The notes beneath the pieces are model-generated. The model was given only the letters and a program-made list of their open reading frames with translations. It was not told the origin of the DNA and made no database searches. Below are positions 1-8,953 of a stretch of 8,953 nucleotides of DNA, one piece after another. Source of the DNA: a virus (Duplodnaviria; Heunggongvirae; Uroviricota; Caudoviricetes); IMG/VR virus record IMGVR_UViG_2778261447_000007, positions 1 through 8,953 of that record; one strand, 5' to 3'. Each line of letters opens with the position of its first letter. Position 1 is the first letter of the stretch. Position numbers and translations under genes: made by a program.

Positions 1-165
1 ATGACTCATGATGAACCCTGTTCCATGGCTCCAGATGACAAACATGATCTCATATCAGGGACTTGTTCGCACCTTCCCTAGCTCTACCCTGCGCCATGAA
101 AATGTCAATTCACATCTGAACTAATGCTCTTTAATCTAGTAACGTCTAAAATACCTAACATTTCC

Positions 166-579
166 TTAATAAAATGCCAGTACACGCTGCATAGCTTCGC
201 TCTTCCGGCACTCGCGACAGATTATATTCAGGCGCCTGTCGTAGCGGCGTATTTCTCCGTCTGGTAATGACCAGATAAGGTCAGGATCAACCACAACCGG
301 TTTTTTCACCTTTTCCCTTGATAGTTTTTTGCGGGCGTTTTGCCAGTCTTTACGCGCCTGCTCAGACGGGAATAATCCGTAGCCTGAATTGTATACATCA
401 CCACTGGCAACCAGCTCTCTGGCAAGAACGCTCAGCAGATATCTTGTCGCACCTGTTTTCGCTTCCAGTTGTCGTAACGTCTCGCGCCCGCTCTGTCGCA
501 CGAGTTCGACAACCTGCCCTTTAATTTTTCCCGCTCTTCTTGTGTAAATACTTTTGCCATAAGCGCCTCCGGCAATCAC
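166..579 (-). CDS. Hypothetical prophage protein (137 aa), function unknown
   Basis: Complete ORF on minus strand. No ATG available; GTG start at 579-577 overlaps the TGA stop of the upstream gene (GTGA coupling). Basic C-terminal half. No family recognised by eye. Confidence 0.45.
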   Translation of the reverse strand: MIAGGAYGKSIYTRRAGKIKGQVVELVRQSGRETLRQLEAKTGATRYLLSVLARELVASGDVYNSGYGLFPSEQARKDWQNARKKLSREKVKKPVVVDPDLIWSLPDGEIRRYDRRLNIICRECRKSEAMQRVLAFY

Positions 580-1346
580 TTTTCCGATACAACACGGCGG
601 GAAGAATCAGTAATCTGTCGAACAATATCCCGGTGCTTGTTCAGCTCCCGCAGCGCGGCGCAGACTCGCTCCCACTTCTGAACATGATTTTTCGCCCGAC
701 GCAATTCGCGGTTTGCCATATGCAGCGATGGTAAAACCAGGTCATCCGCTCGCGTTTCAGTAAACGATGGCAGCGACTGCACAATGTCCGCCACAGTATC
801 TGTTGTAATTTCTTCCTGTGTTGCAGCTTCCTGTACTGGTAACGCAACACCTGCTGGCTGAGGAAAGGCCTTACCAGCCGTTTTCGTTACCGGTGCAGCT
901 TTCGGCTCTGCCGGTAAATTATCGCCCGGCATGCAGTAACTAAATTTACCGTTCCGATTAACGCGTGCCAGCCGCCCCGTTGCGGTTACTACCGCCAGTG
1001 TGGAAGCAACCTTGCGAGTGCTGACACCGAACTTACCCGCCAGTTCCTCACACGTTTTAGCCCCCTCCTGACTGATAAACTCAATCATCATGTCTGCGGT
1101 AACTTTTTGTTCAACCTCCCCGGTCAGCATATCCTGTGCTTCAGATTTTACTGGTCGCTCTTCGGTTACCCGGGATTCACCTTCGCCAGCCAGAAACCAG
1201 ATGTGACCAGTTTTATCAACGAGGCCATTTCTTTTGAGTTCCCACAGCTCGTTCAGAACTTCTTCACGACTGATATCAAGTCGCGTAGCCAATTCTACCG
1301 ACGTGGCTTTTCCCATTGCTTTCAGTGCGTCTAAAACGGTTTCCAT
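576..1346 (-). CDS. Hypothetical prophage protein (256 aa) with two winged-helix-like segments; possibly DUF1627-like (YdaW-like)
   Basis: ATG at 1346; 23 bp downstream of the DnaC-like gene on the same strand. N-terminal 'SVELATRLDISREEVLNELWELKRNGLV' and internal 'CEELAGKFGVSTRKVASTLAVVTATGRLARV' look like wHTH units. Family assignment is from memory and uncertain. Confidence 0.5.
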   Translation of the reverse strand: METVLDALKAMGKATSVELATRLDISREEVLNELWELKRNGLVDKTGHIWFLAGEGESRVTEERPVKSEAQDMLTGEVEQKVTADMMIEFISQEGAKTCEELAGKFGVSTRKVASTLAVVTATGRLARVNRNGKFSYCMPGDNLPAEPKAAPVTKTAGKAFPQPAGVALPVQEAATQEEITTDTVADIVQSLPSFTETRADDLVLPSLHMANRELRRAKNHVQKWERVCAALRELNKHRDIVRQITDSSRRVVSEK

Positions 1347-1369
1347 TAAATTTTTTCTCCCCGATAAAA

Positions 1370-2116
1370 TTACTTTTCAATTCCTGGCTGACCGACATTC
1401 GCACGCCAGCTCTCCCAGTTAAAATTCACCCAGCGCCCACCGTTCATGGTCATGCGGTCCATCACGCGCCCGCCAAGCAGGGTGCTCATTGCGGTATGAT
1501 TCAGGTTCGTCAGCATCCCGACACTGCGCATCGCGGCTGTTCTGCGATCGACGATCTGGTTCAGTGTGACCTGTTCGTTGCGCGTATCACGCTGCATGCC
1601 AATCTCATCCAGAACCAGCAGGTCAACGTCACATAAACCCTGCAAAAATTTTTCGCCTGAGTTTTTGTTATCGTAGATGCCGTGTAGCGCCAGCATCACA
1701 TCAGCCACCGTGACCACAATCACGCTGCGACCTTTCGCCAGAAGATGATTACCGATGGCGGCTGCCAGGTGATTTTTTCCGGTACCCGGCTTACCGCTGA
1801 ACACGAAATTTGTGCATCCGGTTCTCAGTACGTCCGCGATGGATTTTGCCTGGCTCAGCGCATATCGCTGGCCGTCGTTCTGCACCCAGTAATTCGCAAA
1901 CGAACATTTGCGGTGCAACGGCTGGATACCGGAGCGATTCAGAATTTTTTCCACCCGTAACTGACGATTCTGACGGTTGATCTCCTCGCAACGTTTCTGG
2001 CCTTCCGCAAGTTGCCACTCACGCCACTCTTCTGCCGTCCGGTACGGCGCGGTTACATGCTGTGGTGCCAGCTTGCGGATACGTTCAAGAACACCTCCTG
2101 CCGCTATATTTTTCAT
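1370..2116 (-). CDS. DnaC-like replicative helicase loader (AAA+ ATPase, IstB/DnaC family)
   Basis: 248 aa. Walker A 'SGKPGTGKNHLAAAIG', Walker B 'DLLVLDEIG', and 'LNQIVDRR...GMLTNLN...RVMDRM' closely resemble E. coli DnaC as recalled. Starts 6 nt after the initiator gene stop. Confidence 0.9.
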   Translation of the reverse strand: MKNIAAGGVLERIRKLAPQHVTAPYRTAEEWREWQLAEGQKRCEEINRQNRQLRVEKILNRSGIQPLHRKCSFANYWVQNDGQRYALSQAKSIADVLRTGCTNFVFSGKPGTGKNHLAAAIGNHLLAKGRSVIVVTVADVMLALHGIYDNKNSGEKFLQGLCDVDLLVLDEIGMQRDTRNEQVTLNQIVDRRTAAMRSVGMLTNLNHTAMSTLLGGRVMDRMTMNGGRWVNFNWESWRANVGQPGIEK

Positions 2117-2122
2117 AATCCT

Positions 2123-3193
2123 TCACCCCCTGAAACCTGGTGGAATTTCGGTATCCGGTTCGGAAATATGATTCACACAACGCTGGTTGTTCGTCCCGCC
2201 AGTCGGGAGCAACCAGGGGTTTTCAAAATTCCGGTCAGGTCCAAAAAACGTTGTCGCCCGCTGAACAAATTCCGTTCCCGCTTTCCCGGTCGCCGCCAGG
2301 TACCTCGCGTAACGCCTCACACCATCCAGCATGACCTGCGGTGGCACCCCCTCGCGTAATCTGGCCTTCCAGGCACTGAAAGCGGATTTCTTCGGGTTTG
2401 CCCCGGCACGCAACGGGTATTCCCGCCAGACCTGTTCGAACACATCCGGATAATCCACTCGTCCCACAGGCTGCCCGGTGTTTTCCGGGACTACCCGATC
2501 GGCTTCCCGCTGAATCGCGGAATCGGCTTCAGGCTGCTGCAGTTGGTGTGATTGCTCCGACCCTGCGGTCATCGCCTGCTGCACAGCGCCCGAATCGGCT
2601 TTCAGCGCATACGCTGAATCGGCTTCCGGTGTCGTGCCTGCGGGCTGATCAGGATTGACGGTCTGAACATCCCCAGCCTGGTTCGTGGCGTTTTTCACGC
2701 CATGGACCATAGTGTTTTGATCTTCTTGATCTGTATCTTTATCTGTATCTTTATCTGTCGTGACTCGTCGTGACATGTGCGTGACATTTCGTGACGCGCC
2801 GTGACAATCGCCATTTTGTTCCCGCTTTCTTTCCCTCTCTCGCTGCGCCCTCTTGCGCTCTGCAGGAGATTTTGCGGTTTGCGAAATATTGCCGTTGTCC
2901 TCTTTCAGCACCTGGCGTTTTTCCCATCCAGTGATTAAATCACCATCAAGTACCCGCCCCTGCATCGTCTGCAAAATTGAATCAATCATCTCTTCTGTCA
3001 CATCGAGCGCACTTGCCAAATCCTCGGTCGTGACATCAATGTGACCTCGCGTGACATTTCGTGACGCGCTCACCAGGAGGTGGATATACACAGCCATCAC
3101 TGTTGCAATTGGCTGACCTGACACCCGGGCAATGGTTCGCCACTTGGGGTCATTTGGCATGTCATGCCATAATCTGAGCCAGGCATTAGCCAT
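2123..3193 (-). CDS. Phage replication initiator / replisome organiser with DnaT-like C-terminal domain
   Basis: 356 aa, ATG at 3193 with GAGG Shine-Dalgarno. C-terminus '...VNHISEPDTEIPPGFRG' resembles the C-terminus of E. coli primosomal protein DnaT as recalled. Central low-complexity linker is encoded by the iteron repeats. Sits directly upstream of the DnaC-like gene. Confidence 0.75.
   Translation of the reverse strand: MANAWLRLWHDMPNDPKWRTIARVSGQPIATVMAVYIHLLVSASRNVTRGHIDVTTEDLASALDVTEEMIDSILQTMQGRVLDGDLITGWEKRQVLKEDNGNISQTAKSPAERKRAQRERERKREQNGDCHGASRNVTHMSRRVTTDKDTDKDTDQEDQNTMVHGVKNATNQAGDVQTVNPDQPAGTTPEADSAYALKADSGAVQQAMTAGSEQSHQLQQPEADSAIQREADRVVPENTGQPVGRVDYPDVFEQVWREYPLRAGANPKKSAFSAWKARLREGVPPQVMLDGVRRYARYLAATGKAGTEFVQRATTFFGPDRNFENPWLLPTGGTNNQRCVNHISEPDTEIPPGFRG
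2729..2758. repeat. Tandem 12-bp repeat (ATCTGTATCTTT x2.5) in an AT-rich stretch with two GATC sites; candidate DNA-unwinding element of the origin
   Basis: ATCTGTATCTTT at 2729-2740 and 2741-2752, partial ATCTGT at 2753-2758; GATC at 2719-2722 and 2728-2731. Encodes the 'DKDTDKDTD' repeat in the initiator. Confidence 0.6.
2759..2805. repeat. Iteron cluster 1: five CGTGAC repeats with 10-11 bp periodicity (candidate ori iterons inside the initiator gene)
   Basis: CGTGAC at 2759, 2769, 2780, 2790 and 2800, one helical turn apart. Shares the 21-mer GCGTGACATTTCGTGACGCGC (2779-2799) with cluster 2. Confidence 0.7.
3029..3069. repeat. Iteron cluster 2: four (C/T)GTGAC repeats with 10-11 bp periodicity
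   Basis: GTGAC hexamers starting 3029, 3040, 3050 and 3060. The 21-mer GCGTGACATTTCGTGACGCGC at 3049-3069 is identical to 2779-2799. Confidence 0.65.
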
Positions 3194-3264
3194 ACTAACC
3201 TCTTCAGATACCGAATCTTTTTAATCACGTATTACCGAAAGAGATCCGGTATGAATATTGCCGA

Positions 3265-3690
3265 TCAATGCACAGCCACAGCATTTCCGGCCGGGCCACC
3301 ACGGTTGATCTGGTTGAAGCCAGCTATTGCCACCGCGACAAAATCATCAGCGTCTCTCACCAGTCGTTCCCGCATCTCCACCAGCTCCCGAAAATAAGCT
3401 GAACTGTGGCTGCGCATTCTGGCCACCAGCAAAGGTGGCATTGCCTTTTCGATCGCTGGTAACAACGCCTGAATTTTTTCAACTGCATCAGGGGTGTCTT
3501 TCTCTACCCAGCGGAAAATTTTCTGGGTATTACGCGCCAGGGCTTCAGGGTGGCTGTCGTCGTACAGTTCCGGGAACGTCATACCCAGTTCGAAATACGC
3601 TTTGGTAATTTTCGCAGCCGGTACTTTTTCGCCGTCCGGATGCGCCCAGGCATTCATCGCCATGCGGATGTGCTCATGTTTGATTTTCAT
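3265..3690 (-). CDS. ydaT: YdaT-like protein (141 aa; cII-analogue position in Rac-like prophages)
   Basis: ATG at 3690 overlaps the stop of the upstream Cro-like gene (ATGA). Position and size fit the second gene of the Rac ydaS-ydaT operon; N-terminus 'MKIKHEHI...' recalled as YdaT-like. Not verified by alignment. Confidence 0.65.
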   Translation of the reverse strand: MKIKHEHIRMAMNAWAHPDGEKVPAAKITKAYFELGMTFPELYDDSHPEALARNTQKIFRWVEKDTPDAVEKIQALLPAIEKAMPPLLVARMRSHSSAYFRELVEMRERLVRDADDFVAVAIAGFNQINRGGPAGNAVAVH

Positions 3691-3974
3691 GAATCAACCC
3701 CATCAACTTTTTTGGTGTTAAGCTCATATTTATGACTTGAAGGGGGCGTAATTCCGGTGTATTCCGGCCATATAAGATCCCAGTCATTCGGCCTCAACTC
3801 TCTTCTTGTAACATGCCCTGCAGTTTCTGCTTCTATCATTAACGCACGAACAGGAGACACTGGTGAACTGCCAGATGCCATTTGAGACAAGAAGGACGGA
3901 GACACACCAAGGTTGGCAGCAAATTTTTTTGCTTCTCCAGTTTTTAATGATTTGATGAATTCCTTTAGAGTCAT
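3687..3974 (-). CDS. ydaS: Cro-like HTH regulator (YdaS-like), first gene of leftward early operon
   Basis: ATG at 3974 (M12 of the 3687..4007 ORF, whose upstream start is TTG). 'LKEFIKSLKTGEAKKFAANLGVSPSFLSQMASG' is an XRE/Cro-type HTH. Divergent from the repressor gene. Confidence 0.7.
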   Translation of the reverse strand: MTLKEFIKSLKTGEAKKFAANLGVSPSFLSQMASGSSPVSPVRALMIEAETAGHVTRRELRPNDWDLIWPEYTGITPPSSHKYELNTKKVDGVDS

Positions 3975-4010
3975 GATTTCGATCTCAACATACTTTAGTG
4001 CAAGCAAAAG

Positions 4011-4038
4011 TTTATACGTAACTAAATAAACCAGTCAA
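4011..4038 (-). promoter_or_regulatory. pR-like sigma70 promoter for the leftward ydaS-ydaT-replication operon (TTGACT-N16-TATAAA on minus strand)
   Basis: Minus strand reads TTGACT (plus 4033-4038), 16-nt spacer, TATAAA (plus 4011-4016), about 35 nt upstream of the ydaS ATG. Near-identical to the promoter at 5463-5490. Confidence 0.6.
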
Positions 4039-4077
4039 GTATTTGCTTATTTCGCAATTACTAAAGATAATGCATGT

Positions 4078-4449
4078 ATGGAAACAAGAGAGATTCGGCG
4101 TTTACGCCTCAAAGAGTGGTTCAAAGACAGAACTTTGCCACCCAAAGAGAAAAGTTACTTATCTCAGTTAATGAGCGGTAAGGCTACGTTTGGCGAAAAA
4201 GCAGCTAGACGTATTGAACAAACATATGGGATGCCAGGGGGTTATCTTGATATTGAGCCAGAAGACATAACAGAGTCTCCATCATCAAGAGCTATAGCAT
4301 TAACCCCTAACCAGCTGGAATTGCTACAAATATTTAGTGCATTTCCTGATAATGAACAGCAAGAGATCATAAAAGAACTAAGAAACAAAAAAGAAGCAAT
4401 GGAAGATTTTGTCGCACGTTGGTTGGCGCAGCAAGGTCGCCGCGCCTGA
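4078..4449 (+). CDS. Prophage repressor candidate (RacR-like/cI-analogue HTH regulator, 123 aa)
   Basis: Divergent from the Cro-like gene across about 100 bp. HTH-like 'KSYLSQLMSGKATFGEKAARRIEQTYGMPGGYLD'. C-terminal module is homologous to the downstream PaaR-like protein. No Shine-Dalgarno; a GATAAT -10 sits 8 nt upstream of the ATG. Confidence 0.65.
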   Translation: METREIRRLRLKEWFKDRTLPPKEKSYLSQLMSGKATFGEKAARRIEQTYGMPGGYLDIEPEDITESPSSRAIALTPNQLELLQIFSAFPDNEQQEIIKELRNKKEAMEDFVARWLAQQGRRA

Positions 4450-4483
4450 TGGGAAGCATACTCTTAAAAACAAGATATATCAG

Positions 4484-4882
4484 ATGGGTGTACTCGAAAT
4501 TAGTGCTCTTAGAATTAGGAAGCTTTTGTTGGTAACAGGCTGGAGCCAGGCAGAACTTGCGCGCAGAATTGGCATTACTCAACAATCCGTTCAAAGATGG
4601 GTTTGTGGTATCTCAAGCCCTACAGCAGCTAATCTAGATAAACTATCTGAAGCAACAGGATATCCTCAGTATTGGTTCTTCTTACCGTTAAATGAAGAAA
4701 AAAATGACAGAATACAAGATATAATAAAAATAACTCCTAGGCAAAAGGAGCTACTTCAAACATTTGAGGCATTTCCAGAGGAAGATCAAGAGCAAATGCT
4801 TCAGGAGATGAAAGACAAAAAAGAGTTAATGGATCGCACAATTGAAAGATGGCTCGCTGCCCGGAAAGGGCATCGGGCATAA
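4484..4882 (+). CDS. paaR: PaaR-like HTH transcriptional regulator of a three-component ParE toxin-antitoxin system (paralogue of the upstream repressor)
   Basis: ATG at 4484 preferred over the TTG at 4409, which would overlap the upstream gene by 41 nt. XRE-type HTH 'WSQAELARRIGITQQSVQRW'. C-terminus 'ITPRQKELLQTFEAFPEEDQEQ...ERWLA' aligns with 'LTPNQLELLQIFSAFPDNEQQE...ARWLA' of the 4078..4449 product. Directly upstream of the antitoxin and toxin genes. Confidence 0.6.
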   Translation: MGVLEISALRIRKLLLVTGWSQAELARRIGITQQSVQRWVCGISSPTAANLDKLSEATGYPQYWFFLPLNEEKNDRIQDIIKITPRQKELLQTFEAFPEEDQEQMLQEMKDKKELMDRTIERWLAARKGHRA

Positions 4883-4911
4883 TGACCACCATACACAGAC
4901 GGAGGTGTGCC

Positions 4912-5103
4912 ATGAATACGGCCCTTTCACCAATGGTTTCTGAGTTTGAAACTATTGAACAAGAAAACAGTTACAACGAATGGCTGCGAGCCAAAGTAGC
5001 TGCAAGCCTTGCAGATCCGCGCCCAGCAATTCCCCATGACGAAGTTGAGCGCAGAATGGCAGAACGCTTTGCTAAAATACGCAAGGAACGGAGTGAACAG
5101 TAA
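4912..5103 (+). CDS. paaA: PaaA-like antitoxin (63 aa) partnered with ParE
   Basis: ATG at 4912 with GGAGG Shine-Dalgarno 6 nt upstream; TAA stop abuts the parE ATG. 'MNTALSPMVSEFETIEQENSYNEWLRAKVA...' matches the PaaA2 antitoxin of E. coli O157 paaR2-paaA2-parE2 as recalled. Confidence 0.7.
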   Translation: MNTALSPMVSEFETIEQENSYNEWLRAKVAASLADPRPAIPHDEVERRMAERFAKIRKERSEQ

Positions 5104-5388
5104 ATGTTACCTGTGTTATGGCTTGAAAGCGCAGATACCGACCTGGATGATATAACTAGTTACATTGCTCGTTTCGACATAGATGCGGCAGAACGCTTAT
5201 GGCAGCGATTAAGGGGGTGTGTGCTGCCATTATCCGAACATCCGTATTTATACCCCCCAAGCGACAGAGTGCCAGGCTTACGTGAGATTGTGGCTCACCC
5301 CAATTATATAATTCTGTACCGCGTGACAACCTCAAGTATTGAAATAGTAAACGTAGTCCATACCCGCCGACAGTTCCCTGTAACATAA
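5104..5388 (+). CDS. parE: ParE/RelE-superfamily toxin (ParE-like, 94 aa)
   Basis: Immediately follows the antitoxin stop. Size and sequence character ('LWLESADTDLDDITSYIARFD...IVAHPNYIILYRV') typical of ParE toxins. Confidence 0.8.
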   Translation: MLPVLWLESADTDLDDITSYIARFDIDAAERLWQRLRGCVLPLSEHPYLYPPSDRVPGLREIVAHPNYIILYRVTTSSIEIVNVVHTRRQFPVT

Positions 5389-5413
5389 CCCTCTGCCCAT
5401 CAACACAGCCTTA

Positions 5414-5441
5414 AACACTCTCAAAGAGAGTGTTATTTTTT
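5414..5441 (+). terminator. Rho-independent terminator ending the repressor/toxin-antitoxin transcription unit
   Basis: Perfect 9-bp stem AACACTCTC (5414-5422) / GAGAGTGTT (5426-5434), 3-nt loop, followed by A then T6 (5436-5441); 26 nt after the parE stop. Confidence 0.85.
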
Positions 5442-5462
5442 ACTGTTTAGTTAAGTTGTAGA

Positions 5463-5490
5463 TTGACTGTTAAGTTTATTTTTGTATAAA
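5463..5490 (+). promoter_or_regulatory. pL-like sigma70 early promoter (TTGACT-N16-TATAAA) directed toward the 72-aa ORF and RecE-like gene
   Basis: TTGACT 5463-5468, 16-nt spacer, TATAAA 5485-5490. Flanked by GTTAAGTT direct repeats (5450-5457, 5469-5476) and a TTTAGT motif shared with the pR-like region. Confidence 0.55.
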
Positions 5491-5678
5491 CTAATTTCAC
5501 CAACCCACCCCGCCCCACAGAACGCAGGGCAATACTTCGAGTTACCAGGCAGTGGTCAGGGGTTAAGTAGCCAGCCCGAGGCGTATGAACATGACGGCAG
5601 GGTTTAACTTTAACTATGCAGCAGGTTTTTGTTCCGCTACCCCGGCGTTAAGGGGAAACAGCACTGAGAGAAATCAGT

Positions 5679-5897
5679 ATGCAGAAGCGAGAACCCGTCA
5701 TCATCGCGCCAGACTATACCGATGATGAACTTTATGAGTGGATGCGCCAGAAAATTAAGGCAGCGCAGGACCTGAAATGGGCCAATGAAGCCAGGGCTAA
5801 GCAGGCTGAAAATCTGTCCGCTCTGGAGCAGGATATCACCAATCTGGAAAAAGCAGCGGCATTAAGCATTGCCAGAATGATTACATACCCGCGTTAA
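5679..5897 (+). CDS. Hypothetical small early protein (72 aa), first ORF downstream of the pL-like promoter
   Basis: ATG at 5679 with GAGAG upstream. Predicted helical, charged; 'ENLSALEQDITNLEKAAALSIARMI' looks coiled-coil-like. No Arg-rich N-like motif. Function unknown. Confidence 0.5.
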   Translation: MQKREPVIIAPDYTDDELYEWMRQKIKAAQDLKWANEARAKQAENLSALEQDITNLEKAAALSIARMITYPR

Positions 5898-6248
5898 TAG
5901 CTAACCAACGAAGCTAAGGTTGGTAATTAAGGAGTTCTCCACGGGTAAGGTGGAGTACGTGCGCCGGACACGGGTGAGCATCCGGCACTGACAGTTTACT
6001 GAAAGGATATTTCCCTGAAAAGTCAGACCATAACGCGAAAGCGCACGGCGAGGTAGCTGGTTCATAGATAGTCTGTCGTTAAATTTTCGTCGACCGTGCG
6101 CTTCCGGTTGTGGCACTCCGCGAAATGGCGCGGCGTAATCATGGCGGGGTACCCTTCCCCTTGAGGACACCGGGTTGTCAGGCTGACCATGCGCCTGAGT
6201 GACAACCCCGCTGCAACGCCCTCTGTTATCAATTTTCTGGTGACGTTT

Positions 6249-6291
6249 GGCGGTATCAGTTTTACTCCGTGACTGCTCTGCCGCCCTTTTT
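6249..6291 (+). terminator. Possible intrinsic terminator (GGCGG...CCGCC stem then T5), weak
   Basis: GGCGG 6249-6253 pairs with CCGCC 6281-6285, followed by C and T5 (6287-6291). Loop is long (27 nt, with an internal CAGT/ACTG stem), so non-canonical. Confidence 0.3.
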
Positions 6292-6295
6292 AAAG

Positions 6296-6443
6296 TGAAT
6301 TTTGTGATGTGGTGAATGCGGCTCAGCGCACGCGGAACAGTTAAAACCAAAAACAGTGTTATGGGTGGATTCTCTGTATCCGGCGTTAATTGTTAACTGG
6401 TTAACGTCACCTGGAGGCACCAGGCACCGCATCACAAAATTCA
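6296..6443. repeat. 17-bp imperfect inverted repeat pair (16/17) flanking a ~114-bp segment that contains tandem GTTAAC palindromes
   Basis: Left arm TGAATTTTGTGATGTGG (6296-6312); right arm CCGCATCACAAAATTCA (6427-6443) is its reverse complement with one mismatch. Interior has GTTAACTGGTTAAC (about 6393-6406) and CCTGG-aggca-CCAGG. Confidence 0.6.
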
Positions 6444-6460
6444 TTGTTTAGGACGCGATA

Positions 6461-6643
6461 ATGGAAACGTTATTACCAAACGTCAATACGTCTGAAGGTT
6501 GTTTTGAAATTGGTGTCAGAATCAGTAACCCTGTATTTACTGAAGATGCCATTAATAAGAGAAAACACGAACGGGAGCTATTAAATCAAATATGCATTGT
6601 TTCAATGCTGGCCCGTTTACGCCTGATGCAAAAAGGACGCTGA
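6461..6643 (+). CDS. Hypothetical small protein (60 aa)
   Basis: ATG at 6461, 17 nt after the right inverted-repeat arm, with AGGA upstream. Stop is 2 nt before the next ORF start. No family recognised. Confidence 0.4.
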   Translation: METLLPNVNTSEGCFEIGVRISNPVFTEDAINKRKHERELLNQICIVSMLARLRLMQKGR

Positions 6644-6645
6644 CA

Positions 6646-6837
6646 ATGAATACAGCATTTGCACTCGTTCTGACAGTTTTTCTTAATACAGGCGAACCAG
6701 TCGATCTTGTTATTGGTATACATGACTCAATGAAAGAATGCATGGCTGCCGCAGCGGAACAGAAAATTCCCGGCAACTGTTATCCGGTTGATAAAGTTAT
6801 TCGCATGGACAATAACGAAATCCCGGCTGGTCTTTAA
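6646..6837 (+). CDS. Small protein (63 aa) with hydrophobic N-terminus and conserved Cys; possibly DUF1482/YebW-like
   Basis: ATG at 6646 (M19 of the 6592..6837 ORF) with AAGGA Shine-Dalgarno. 'MNTAFALVLTVFLNTGEPVDLVIG...C...CYP' resembles YebW-type small prophage proteins as recalled. Uncertain. Confidence 0.45.
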   Translation: MNTAFALVLTVFLNTGEPVDLVIGIHDSMKECMAAAAEQKIPGNCYPVDKVIRMDNNEIPAGL

Positions 6838-6929
6838 AACAGTTCCGTAATAAACATCCGATTTCATTCTTATATGCCAGCAATGGCAGGGATTTGTTCA
6901 CCCTTAAATCTGTAATGAGGTAAAACAAA

Positions 6930-8953
6930 ATGAGTAAAGTCTTTATTTGCGCCGCCATTCCGGACGAACAGGCAATAAAGGAAGAAGGTGCAGTTGCTGT
7001 AGCCACTGCCATTGAAGCCGGTGATGAACGTCGCGCCCGCGCAAAATTTCACTGGCAATTCCTGGAACATTATCCGGCTGCTCAGGACTGCGCTTATAAA
7101 TTTCTTGTTTGCGAGGATAAACCCGGTATACCCCGCCCTGCCCTCGATTCCTGGGATGCTGAATATATGCAGGAAAACCGCTGGGATGAGGAGTCTGCTT
7201 CCTTTGTCCCTGTTGAGACTGAATCAGATCCGATGAACGCCACTTTTGACAAGCTGGCCCCTGAAGTACAGAACGCTGTCATGGTTAGGTTCGACGCATG
7301 TGAAAACATCACCGTTGATATGGTGATTAGCGCGCAGGAATTGTTGCAGGAAGACATGGCAACATTCGACGGACATATCGTTGAAGCGTTGATGAAAATG
7401 CCAGAAGTTAACGCCATGTATCCGGAGCTTAAGCTGCATGCCATCGGGTGGGTTAAACATAAATGTAAGCCGGGTGCAAAATGGCCTGAGATCCAGACAG
7501 AATTACGCACATGGAAAAAACGTCGCGAAGCCGAACGCAAAGAAACCGGGAAATACACGTCTGTTGTAGATCTCGCCCGCGCCAGAGTCAACCTACAGCA
7601 CACTGAAAACTCAGCAGAAAAAATCCACCCTGTCACTGCAGTCATTCGTCGCGAATATAAGCAGACGTGGAAAACACTGGATGATGAACTGGCCTACGCT
7701 CTGTGGCCTGGTGACATTGATGCCGGAAACATTGACGGCAGCATCCATCGCTGGGCAAAAAATGAAGTTATCGACAACGACCGCGAAGACTGGAAGCGTA
7801 TCTCGGCATCAATGCGCAAACAGCCTGATGCCCTTCGCTACGACCGCCAGACTATTTTTGGCCTTGTCCGTGAACGTCCGATCGACATTCACAAAGACCC
7901 TGTGGCACTGAACAAATACATTACTGAATACCTGACTACAAAGGGCGTGTTTGAAGATGAAGGAACAAATCAGAGCGCAACTGATACTCTCTCGTCGCCA
8001 GTACCAGAAACTGATGCAGTGGAAACGGCAATTCCGGACAACGAAAAAACCGAATGCAAAGTGGAAGTCGAACCATCTGTAGAGCGTGAGGGGCCGTTCT
8101 ACTTCCTCTTCACCGACAAGGATGGCGAAAAATACGGTCGCGCAAACAAACTTTCTGGTCTGGATAAGGCGCTGGCTGCCGGGGCTACTGAAATCACGAA
8201 AGAAGAATATTTCGCCCGCAAAAACGGTACATACTCAGGTTCACAACAAAATACTGGTGCATCTGACACGACCGCACAACCAGAGCCGGTAAAAGTTACA
8301 GCTGACGAAGTAAGCAAAATTATGCAGGCAGCCAATATCAGCCAGCCTGACGCCGATAAGTTGCTTGCGGCCTCTCGCGGTGAATTTGTTGCAGGGATTA
8401 GCGATCCGAATGATCCGAAATGGGTGAAGGGGATTGAAACCCGCGATTCTGTGAACCAGAACCAGCAAGAAACGGAACAGAACGACCAGAAAGAGGAACA
8501 AAACAGCCCAAATACGCAACAAAACGAGCCAGAAACGAAACAACCTGAGCCAGTAGCGCAACAGGAACCAGAAAAAGTCTGCACCGCCTGCGGTCAGACC
8601 AGCGGCGGCAACTGCCCTGATTGTGGCTCAGTAATGGGTGACGCAACATACCAGGAAACATTCAATGGAGAAAATCAGGCTGAATCTCAGGAAAAAAATC
8701 CGGAGGAAACGGAAGGCACTGAGCATCCGCACAAGGAGAACACTGGCGGCGCTCAGGGCCACGCCAGCGATAATAAAACTGGCGAAACAGAAAATTCCTT
8801 AATTAAGATGAACGGTCATCGTGAAATCACATCCACCAGCAGAGTATGGAATCACCTGTCAGTCGACCTTGAAACCATGGGAACCAACACCAATGCACCC
8901 ATAGTAGTTATTGGTGCGGTTTTCTTCGACCCGGAAACAGGGGAAATCGGGCC
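6930..8953 (+). CDS. recE: RecE-like (exodeoxyribonuclease VIII family) large early protein, 5' part only (674+ aa, continues past window end)
   Basis: ATG at 6930 with in-frame TAA at 6921 and GAGG Shine-Dalgarno; frame open to the end of the window. Central 'KLLAASRGEFVAGISDPNDPKWVKGIETRDSVNQNQ' and CxxC-x8-CxxC motif (8580-8624) match the non-catalytic middle of E. coli RecE as recalled. Last residues 'VDLETMG...IVVIGAV' (from 8862) resemble DnaQ-like exonuclease motif I. Confidence 0.55.
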   Translation, partial: MSKVFICAAIPDEQAIKEEGAVAVATAIEAGDERRARAKFHWQFLEHYPAAQDCAYKFLVCEDKPGIPRPALDSWDAEYMQENRWDEESASFVPVETESDPMNATFDKLAPEVQNAVMVRFDACENITVDMVISAQELLQEDMATFDGHIVEALMKMPEVNAMYPELKLHAIGWVKHKCKPGAKWPEIQTELRTWKKRREAERKETGKYTSVVDLARARVNLQHTENSAEKIHPVTAVIRREYKQTWKTLDDELAYALWPGDIDAGNIDGSIHRWAKNEVIDNDREDWKRISASMRKQPDALRYDRQTIFGLVRERPIDIHKDPVALNKYITEYLTTKGVFEDEGTNQSATDTLSSPVPETDAVETAIPDNEKTECKVEVEPSVEREGPFYFLFTDKDGEKYGRANKLSGLDKALAAGATEITKEEYFARKNGTYSGSQQNTGASDTTAQPEPVKVTADEVSKIMQAANISQPDADKLLAASRGEFVAGISDPNDPKWVKGIETRDSVNQNQQETEQNDQKEEQNSPNTQQNEPETKQPEPVAQQEPEKVCTACGQTSGGNCPDCGSVMGDATYQETFNGENQAESQEKNPEETEGTEHPHKENTGGAQGHASDNKTGETENSLIKMNGHREITSTSRVWNHLSVDLETMGTNTNAPIVVIGAVFFDPETGEIG

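Follow-up and report, generated by a model that had tools for sequence, protein, structure and literature searches.

Why does a phage replication initiator end like the host primosomal protein DnaT, and why does its gene stand directly in front of a DnaC-type helicase loader, as dnaT does in the host? The question is raised by an 8,953-nucleotide (nt) stretch of a Caudoviricetes genome (IMG/VR record IMGVR_UViG_2778261447_000007, positions 1 to 8,953; hereafter the window), which is a piece of a Rac-like lambdoid E. coli prophage. An initial annotation, read from the sequence alone, described a DnaT-like C-terminus in the initiator and a close DnaC homologue in the next gene, and suggested that the phage initiator may recruit or mimic the host primosome. 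Our analysis revealed that the likeness to DnaT is confined to a tail of the last ~19-24 residues of the initiator. This tail is a real, specific, conserved and portable short motif linked to dnaC-family genes. The features on which the argument turns are given below, with lengths in amino acids (aa).

2123-3193, minus strand: replication initiator ('phage replisome organizer'), 356 aa (open reading frame (ORF); phrog_3729)
2126-2182, minus strand: DnaT-type C-terminal tail motif, R338-G356 (RCVNHISEPDTEIPPGFRG) (BLASTP; NF002770)
2204-2455, minus strand: helical C-terminal domain of the initiator (~residues 247-330), not a DnaT domain
2894-3193, minus strand: N-terminal domain of the initiator, presumed to bind the origin (~residues 1-100; PHROG matches)
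2117-2125, minus strand: initiator-loader junction, with TGA stop, two in-frame codons and loader ATG, and an AAGGA Shine-Dalgarno sequence overlapping the stop (GGGTGAAGGATTATG)
1370-2116, minus strand: DnaC-family helicase loader (YdaV-like), 248 aa (NF009043; Pfam IstB_IS21)

The last residues of the initiator are QRCVNHISEPDTEIPPGFRG, and the longer C-terminal stretch compared with the end of K-12 DnaT is TGGTNNQRCVNHISEPDTEIPPGFRG. With the translation from NC_000913.3 as the DnaT reference, BLASTP pairs initiator residues 331-356 with DnaT 154-179 at 15 identities in 26 positions, without gaps and as far as the stop codon in both (pairwise E = 9e-8). The NCBIfam DnaT model NF002770 matches initiator residues 333-356 at profile positions 156-179 of 179 (E = 0.0015). 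The DnaT-like C-terminus of the initial annotation is thus upheld, and a DnaT-family model does match in the C-terminal region. The initiator end fits the motif [KR]-R-D-[VIL]-N-..-S-[EQ]-P-D-..-I-P-.-G-F-R-G at the protein terminus, which DnaT orthologues keep nearly unchanged. Over the last 20 residues, the initiator and K-12 dnaT encode 14 identical residues, and because six of these 14 codons differ synonymously, the codon comparison indicates that conservation acts on the tail peptide. The tail is better conserved than the neighbouring loader (48%), and the domains that precede it are unrelated.

The proposal that DnaT likeness extends over residues ~250-356 did not hold up. The initiator has no Pfam match at E <= 0.01, including to the DnaT domain PF17948 (PDB 4OU6, 2RU8) and to Phage_rep_org_N (PF09681), and neither of the lambda O family domains, Phage_rep_O (PF04492) and Phg_2220_C (PF09524), matches it. 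Its NF002770 score of 18.2 bits, earned by residues 333-356 only, lies below the curated 201-bit cutoff for the whole protein. Outside the tail, BLASTP against DnaT gives a single 10-residue chance match (E = 0.3) and finds no counterpart of the DnaT N-terminal oligomerisation domain or of the acidic PriB-binding linker. With the tails removed, hhalign compares the window-type C-terminal domain with the DnaT domain at 9% probability; phage proteins with a genuine DnaT domain, used as a positive control, reach 100%. A fold search with the initiator C-terminal domain lists no DnaT among its matches. In the AlphaFold2 model of residues 235-356 (mean predicted local distance difference test score, pLDDT, 66.6), helices span residues 250-258, 268-281, 285-302 and 313-316, and the tail is unstructured and of low confidence. 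Homologues of this C-terminal domain exist without the tail, one of them labelled Pseudomonas aeruginosa; the homologue search with residues 246-356 returned chiefly partial E. coli entries of little diversity.

The protein resembles annotated replication initiators along its whole length. Residues 1-356 align with positions 1-356 of phrog_3729, 'replication initiation protein' (E = 1.1e-250), and a 100% identical gene of E. coli GF60 is annotated as 'phage replisome organizer'. N-terminal segments ending at residues 149, 162 and 187 match the N-terminal parts of phrog_21423, phrog_15931 and phrog_1408, and the 'replisome organizer' families phrog_4880 and phrog_5968 match the N-terminal part at E = 9e-6 and 3e-4. 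The gene sits in an early-right operon, with a regulator in the cro/cII-type position (YdaS-/YdaT-like) upstream and the DnaC-like gene downstream.

The same tail recurs on many other proteins. A tblastn search with the 26-residue tail matched 51 phage records from Escherichia, Salmonella, Shigella, Klebsiella and Pantoea. We then scanned a viral collection with a degenerate DNA pattern for P-D-x-x-[IV]-P-x-G-F-R-G followed by a stop codon, which gave at least 120 matches. In all 120 listed, the match is a genuine tail at the C-terminus of an initiator-like ORF, and the complete ORFs are mostly 260-400 aa long. Positions left free by the pattern are still conserved among them: R at -19, D/C/Q at -18, N at -16, I/V/L at -14 and S/P at -13. 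The resulting consensus, R-[DCQ]-[VILP]-N-x-[VIL]-[SP]-x-P-D-x-x-[IV]-P-x-G-F-R-G, is nearly always C-terminal. Without their tails, the bodies represent a minimum of five C-terminal domain classes, none of which detects another (all hhalign comparisons below 15%): the window type, a 'KLREKWD' type, a YdaU/Gifsy type, a true DnaT domain and Phg_2220_C. The N-terminal types paired with the tail are Phage_rep_O, DUF1376, phrog_2509, phrog_1701 (labelled as a DnaD-like domain; PDB 2ZC2, 2I5U) and the window type. Gifsy-1 and Kp4882-1/AH07 do carry both Phage_rep_O and Phg_2220_C domains, and one identical tail sequence was found on different bodies.

The specificity of the motif is evident from an exhaustive search of a 22-position tail profile against 1.84 billion protein cluster representatives. 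At E <= 0.001 only 58 clusters match, so the resemblance is not a product of chance; four of the 58 are false positives caused by low complexity, and the majority of the others carry the motif at the C-terminus. Tail-bearing initiators, in the phage records and in the cluster of P0327, go under inconsistent names: 'DNA replication protein O', 'Primosomal protein I', 'PrpO', YdaU, 'Pyocin large subunit', 'transcriptional regulator' and 'DnaT-like ssDNA-binding domain-containing protein' (ssDNA, single-stranded DNA). A 98-aa tail-bearing fragment assigned to the spider Trichonephila clavipes (P0303) looks like contamination or mis-binning.

Five clusters (P0308, P0313, P0317, P0321 and P0330) carry the motif internally, with 12-90 residues after it and an unrelated body. 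These proteins are 317-402 aa long, and their contigs (among them loci L257-L259, L262 and L263, for P0308, P0330 and P0313) carry StbA/ParM-StbB, Rep3, ParA, UmuDC-like and Hok genes, a plasmid-like setting in which the neighbourhood contains no DnaC-like gene. Neither the plasmid nor the phage collection searched holds a match to P0308.

The taxonomic range of the tail is narrow. The same DNA pattern was run on a collection with one genome per species, where it matched at least 120 stretches, which we treat as a sample. Among the matches listed, ~100 are true tails, namely 69 host dnaT genes and ~31 prophage initiators, and nearly all are labelled Enterobacterales (Enterobacteriaceae together with Erwinia, Pantoea, Winslowiella and Phaseolibacter). 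Three of them, in Winslowiella (L161), Pantoea (L222) and Escherichia albertii (L254), had been classed automatically as chance matches and proved real on inspection. Two true tails come from metagenome-assembled genomes with uninformative or doubtful labels, one 'Proteobacteria bacterium' and one Bacillota-binned 5-kb contig; the latter (L251) carries an E. coli-type initiator and looks like contamination or mis-binning. The extended motif is missing from the other 20 matches listed, which fall in Actinomycetota, Planctomycetota, Bacteroidota and further groups; most of these do not end at a stop codon, as in an actinobacterial 'GDSFTEG.GDPD..VPGGFRGW' protein. Among the matches listed, the tail is thus found only in Enterobacterales wherever the organism label can be interpreted, in agreement with the placement of the domesticated dnaC in this order (PMC5109545).

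The gene that follows the initiator is a DnaC homologue, as the initial annotation stated: its product is 48% identical to K-12 DnaC across 242 aa (E = 8e-87), and Walker A (GKPGTGKNHLA) and Walker B (DLLVLDEIG) motifs are seen in its sequence. It passes the cutoff of NF009043/PRK12377 (485.6 bits against 389) and misses that of the DnaC equivalog NF005931 (305 bits against 357), which makes it a phage paralogue and not DnaC itself. The parallel drawn with the host dnaT-dnaC pair also stands, tight junction included: the loader ATG lies 6 nt past the initiator stop, in the same frame, and K-12 dnaC starts 2 nt past dnaT. The loader is probably translationally coupled to the initiator. A single stop-codon change would join the two genes in one ORF. 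Two apparent natural fusions were rejected: P0053, a DnaT-DnaC fusion, is a deletion artefact in which the end of the tail is missing, and P0214 is a loader joined to the downstream DUF1627 gene.

The arrangement recurs widely. Among the 120 viral matches listed, a DnaC-like gene is present at 68 loci, a fragment at two and none in the stored DNA at 41; at the other nine the downstream DNA is too short for a call. With one exception, the 68 DnaC-like genes start at -4 to +6 nt, and the gap from stop to ATG is 2 or 6 nt for 63 of them. Among the genome matches listed, dnaC follows host dnaT wherever the stored flank permitted checking. Tails are also kept where the loader gene is missing. Initiators of 356 aa and of 320 aa occur both with and without the dnaC-like and DUF1627 genes (L016-L135; for example L016, L021 and L107 against the window), and in the short form a DUF977 gene begins 40 nt after the initiator stop; the dnaC-like plus DUF1627 segment therefore behaves as an insertion/deletion polymorphism. 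Two phages with complete genomes, Tritos (whose 356-aa initiator is the same, at 96% identity) and Salmonella phage SPN1S, have no gene for a DnaC-like protein; tblastn at E <= 10 gave noise only. Their annotations list no helicase and no primase, and the sole annotated replication protein is the tail-bearing initiator. These phages must use host DnaB and DnaC.

We aligned 136 loader sequences, comprising 135 distinct sequences encoded downstream of tail genes and the K-12 DnaC reference (58 host-type and 78 phage-type). Residues Q81, A84 and A88 (E. coli DnaC numbering) are invariant, and positions 82, 83, 86, 87, 89 and 90 vary. The three invariant residues would lie on one face if this segment is helical. 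The DnaC1331 substitution (A84Y) blocks only the PriA/PriB/DnaT pathway (PMC11087952), and this phenotype together with the invariance marks a candidate docking surface, which we offer as a lead only. Where a tail combines K at -9 with T, S or A at -5, the loader belongs to the more divergent clade; this covariation is not counted as evidence because tail and loader are adjacent and co-inherited.

The initiator gene also contains repeats of the kind expected of an origin.

2724-2805, no strand: putative origin core, an AT-rich 3x12-bp tandem (2724-2759) and then five CGTGAC repeats at 10-11 bp spacing (2759-2805) (repeat search)
3029-3065, no strand: second CGTGAC cluster (3029, 3050 and 3060), same orientation (repeat search)

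The five copies at 2759-2805 share one orientation. The window has 11 copies of CGTGAC where 3.84 are expected, and none of 200 shuffles gave as many; 8 of the 11 copies lie within the initiator gene. The GC fraction dips to 0.37-0.38 at 2690-2779. Taken together, the repeats and the AT-rich tandem probably form the prophage origin. Because the repeats lie in coding sequence, they are also translated, as 'SRNVT(R/H)' peptides at residues 43-48 and 133-138.

We used these observations, together with the literature on DnaT, to build a model of how the tail might work, in which our confidence is slightly better than even. The N-terminal part of the initiator would bind the CGTGAC iterons within its own coding sequence, as in lambda O. 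The tail would hang on a flexible linker and serve as a docking peptide for DnaB and its DnaC-family loader, either the phage's own, encoded 6 nt downstream, or host DnaC, and DnaT would use the same handle. At the phage origin the initiator would then act like DnaT at a PriA/PriB-marked fork, handing a marked single-stranded site to DnaB-DnaC. We place the tail on the DnaB-DnaC side because it is the sole element common to DnaT and the initiator, and the PriA and PriB contacts lie elsewhere in DnaT. In the 2026 preprimosome structures, the DnaT C-terminal domain docks on PriA and forms an ssDNA filament, the acidic linker binds PriB, and the N-terminal domain oligomerises (PMC13377028). The DnaT chains deposited for the mature-complex model, 9ZBU, comprise residues 1-154, and the 2014 crystal structure covers a proteolytic core of residues 84-153 (PMC4132743). 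The preprimosome study states that how DnaB/DnaC get recruited 'remains unknown' and does not discuss the DnaT tail (PMC13377028); a 2024 study of DnaC says the same of this recruitment step (PMC11087952). A protein-docking peptide with a DnaB-DnaC(-like) partner would fit the flexible end, the linkage to dnaC-family genes, the persistence of the tail where host DnaC is used, and its confinement, among the matches listed, to the order having DnaT and DnaC. A further step, which we put forward tentatively and doubt somewhat more than we believe, is that the tail is the element by which DnaT itself recruits DnaB-DnaC, docking on the Q81/A84/A88 face, and that it began as a phage handle which the host acquired with a domesticated module.

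Several points weigh against this model. The DnaT N-terminal domain has been suggested as the recruiter of DnaB/DnaC, by analogy with DnaA (PMC13377028), and as of 2024 no direct contact of DnaC with PriA, PriB or DnaT had been demonstrated (PMC11087952). The invariance of Q81, A84 and A88 could merely reflect folding constraints, the linkage between tail and dnaC is confounded by physical adjacency, and binding of the initiator to the CGTGAC iterons is read from a sequence pattern. The internal motif of the plasmid-like class means that a free C-terminus is not strictly required. Finally, removal of residues 154-179 from DnaT raises its apparent Kd (dissociation constant) for dT30 from 12.9 to 27.1 uM and lowers the Hill coefficient (PMC4132743); ssDNA binding is thus about two-fold weaker without these residues, and a role in DNA binding is possible.

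These truncation data support an alternative in which the tail is an ssDNA-binding arm that, with no protein partner, helps the preceding C-terminal domain to coat melted origin or fork DNA. The R, N, F and R residues of the motif could indeed touch DNA. We nevertheless consider this account unlikely: the tail follows five unrelated C-terminal domains, which makes cooperation with one specific DNA-binding fold improbable; its invariant P-D..[IV]-P.G-F-R-G core, with fixed Pro, Gly and Asp, resembles a pocket-fitting peptide and not a basic arm; and its restriction to Enterobacterales among the matches listed contrasts with the universality of ssDNA. It would also be surprising, in our judgement, if the tail docked some other host factor, such as PriA/PriB (with phage origins feeding the restart primosome), SSB, DnaG primase, a protease or a chaperone. 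Tail-bearing initiators that work without a phage loader do call for a partner that is a host protein or belongs to a family shared by host and phage, and DnaT contacts both PriA and PriB (PMC13377028). The resolved contacts, however, use the DnaT C-terminal domain and acidic linker, with 9ZBU ending at residue 154; it is not obvious why an initiator already bound at its origin would need PriA/PriB; and a partner of this kind leaves the tight dnaC-family linkage unexplained.

That the tail has no function, and is either a recombination remnant at the 3' end of the gene or kept only as ribosome-binding DNA for the loader, is very improbable. The tail-coding DNA does abut the loader start, with the Shine-Dalgarno sequence overlapping the stop codon, and identical tails on different bodies imply recombination at this point. 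Yet the tail is kept without a dnaC-like gene at the 41 viral loci, in the two complete phage genomes and in the plasmid-like class. Its conserved positions extend 19 residues upstream, well past a ribosome-binding site, the synonymous codon changes place the conservation at the level of the peptide, and it is more conserved than the loader it would serve. Hitch-hiking and translational coupling as explanations of the tail are therefore largely rejected.

The suggestion that the phage initiator mimics the host primosome probably has the direction reversed. The tail occurs on many unrelated phage bodies and on a single host protein, and phage modules exist in which an initiator with a DnaT domain and tail is followed at +2 nt by a DnaC-like gene (L064, L047, L137, L193, L236 and L245). 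Brezellec et al. showed by phylogeny that the dnaC of enterobacteria is a domesticated phage gene (PMC5109545). On these three grounds, the most likely origin of dnaT-dnaC is the joint domestication of both genes from such a phage module, with no copying of the host by the phage, and the shared tail supports this view.

If the docking model is correct, Enterobacterales phages and plasmid-like elements would plug any origin-binding body into host helicase loading through one common peptide. The question of how DnaT recruits DnaB-DnaC would become a peptide-sized hypothesis, in which the region around DnaC A84 is the candidate surface for the partner. The search is narrowed to one small element that is common to DnaT and to unrelated initiators delivering DnaB, and that is absent from the resolved portion of DnaT in the preprimosome structure. 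The tail would also serve as a simple sequence marker for replicons relying on DnaC-type loading, and its presence explains the inconsistent names, listed above, that annotation pipelines give to these initiators. Should the tail merely aid ssDNA binding, all that is left of the finding is an appendage conserved on a prophage gene that is itself common.

The initiator-loader pair as such is ordinary, a common and already annotated prophage replication module. The 356-aa initiator gene is present at >=80% coverage in 1,647 of 5,426 complete E. coli genomes. The nearest record to the window is E. coli GF60 (99% identity across 74% of the window), whose prophage is inserted beside tRNA-Ser and mtfA. 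The remaining genes of the operon are as follows.

3687-4007, minus strand: YdaS-like gene (ORF list; Pfam/NCBIfam)
3265-3690, minus strand: YdaT-like gene (ORF list; Pfam/NCBIfam)
576-1346, minus strand: DUF1627 gene (ORF list; Pfam/NCBIfam)
166-579, minus strand: DUF977 gene (ORF list; Pfam/NCBIfam)

The order of genes on the minus strand is that of ydaS-ydaT-ydaU-ydaV-ydaW in the K-12 Rac prophage. On the plus strand, two overlapping, neighbouring repressor-like ORFs (4078-4449 and 4409-4882) resemble each other in a C-terminal segment of ~45 residues (TPxQxELLQxFxAFP...KKExM...RWLA), and the Pfam HTH_3 family matches the second but not the first. A ParD-like 'stability determinant' and a RelE/ParE-family toxin form a pair at 4849-5388 on the plus strand, between the immunity genes and the early-left region, and are annotated identically in GF60.

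Several known systems can be set beside the window initiator. In lambda O/P, the initiator gene likewise holds iteron-like repeats and an AT-rich tract and is followed by the loader gene, and the C-terminal part of lambda O is the side that contacts the loader. The window system departs from lambda in that its initiator has no Phage_rep_O or Phg_2220_C domain, its loader is of the AAA+ DnaC type and not lambda P, and the proposed contact is a short terminal peptide. Rac YdaU-YdaV of K-12 has the same layout, with the succession of YdaS, YdaT, initiator, DnaC-like gene and DUF1627. YdaU ends in the same tail (LRQVNTVSLPDSAIPPGFRG), 6 nt ahead of the loader gene, and loaders of Rac-type loci are ~83% identical to that of the window; YdaU differs from the window initiator in its DUF1376 N-terminal domain and its other C-terminal class, and the two show no BLAST similarity once the tails are removed. 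K-12 thus encodes two tail-bearing proteins, DnaT (L002, 2479-3018) and Rac YdaU (L256, 1620-2477), each directly upstream of a DnaC-family gene (dnaC and ydaV), and cross-talk might occur if Rac is expressed.

Among SPN1S/epsilon15-type initiators, the SPN1S-type proteins end in the same tail but hold a true DnaT domain (PF17948, E = 4e-18; 63% identical to DnaT 86-153), where the window initiator has only the tail; their NCBI name is 'DnaT-like ssDNA-binding domain-containing protein'. In DopC, which is O-like and stands beside a lambda-P-like loader, Brezellec et al. recognised a 'DnaT_C' domain (PMC5509034). Both DopC and the SPN1S/epsilon15-type proteins resemble initiators, belong to phages or derive from them, and have C-terminal elements in common with DnaT. 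The link between DnaT and phage initiators is therefore partly known at the level of domains, and the terminal motif is apparently undescribed: a search of open-access literature found neither a description of it nor any text with 'PPGFRG'.

The E. coli DnaT-DnaC pair itself has the same 19-residue C-terminal motif in the same place, directly upstream of a DnaC-family gene. The two proteins differ in size (356 against 179 aa), and the initiator is without the DnaT N-terminal domain, the acidic linker and the three-helix DNA-binding domain. They also differ in targeting, presumably through origin iterons for the initiator and through PriA/PriB for DnaT. The adaptor logic, in which a protein marks the loading site and brings DnaB-DnaC to it, is probably common to both.

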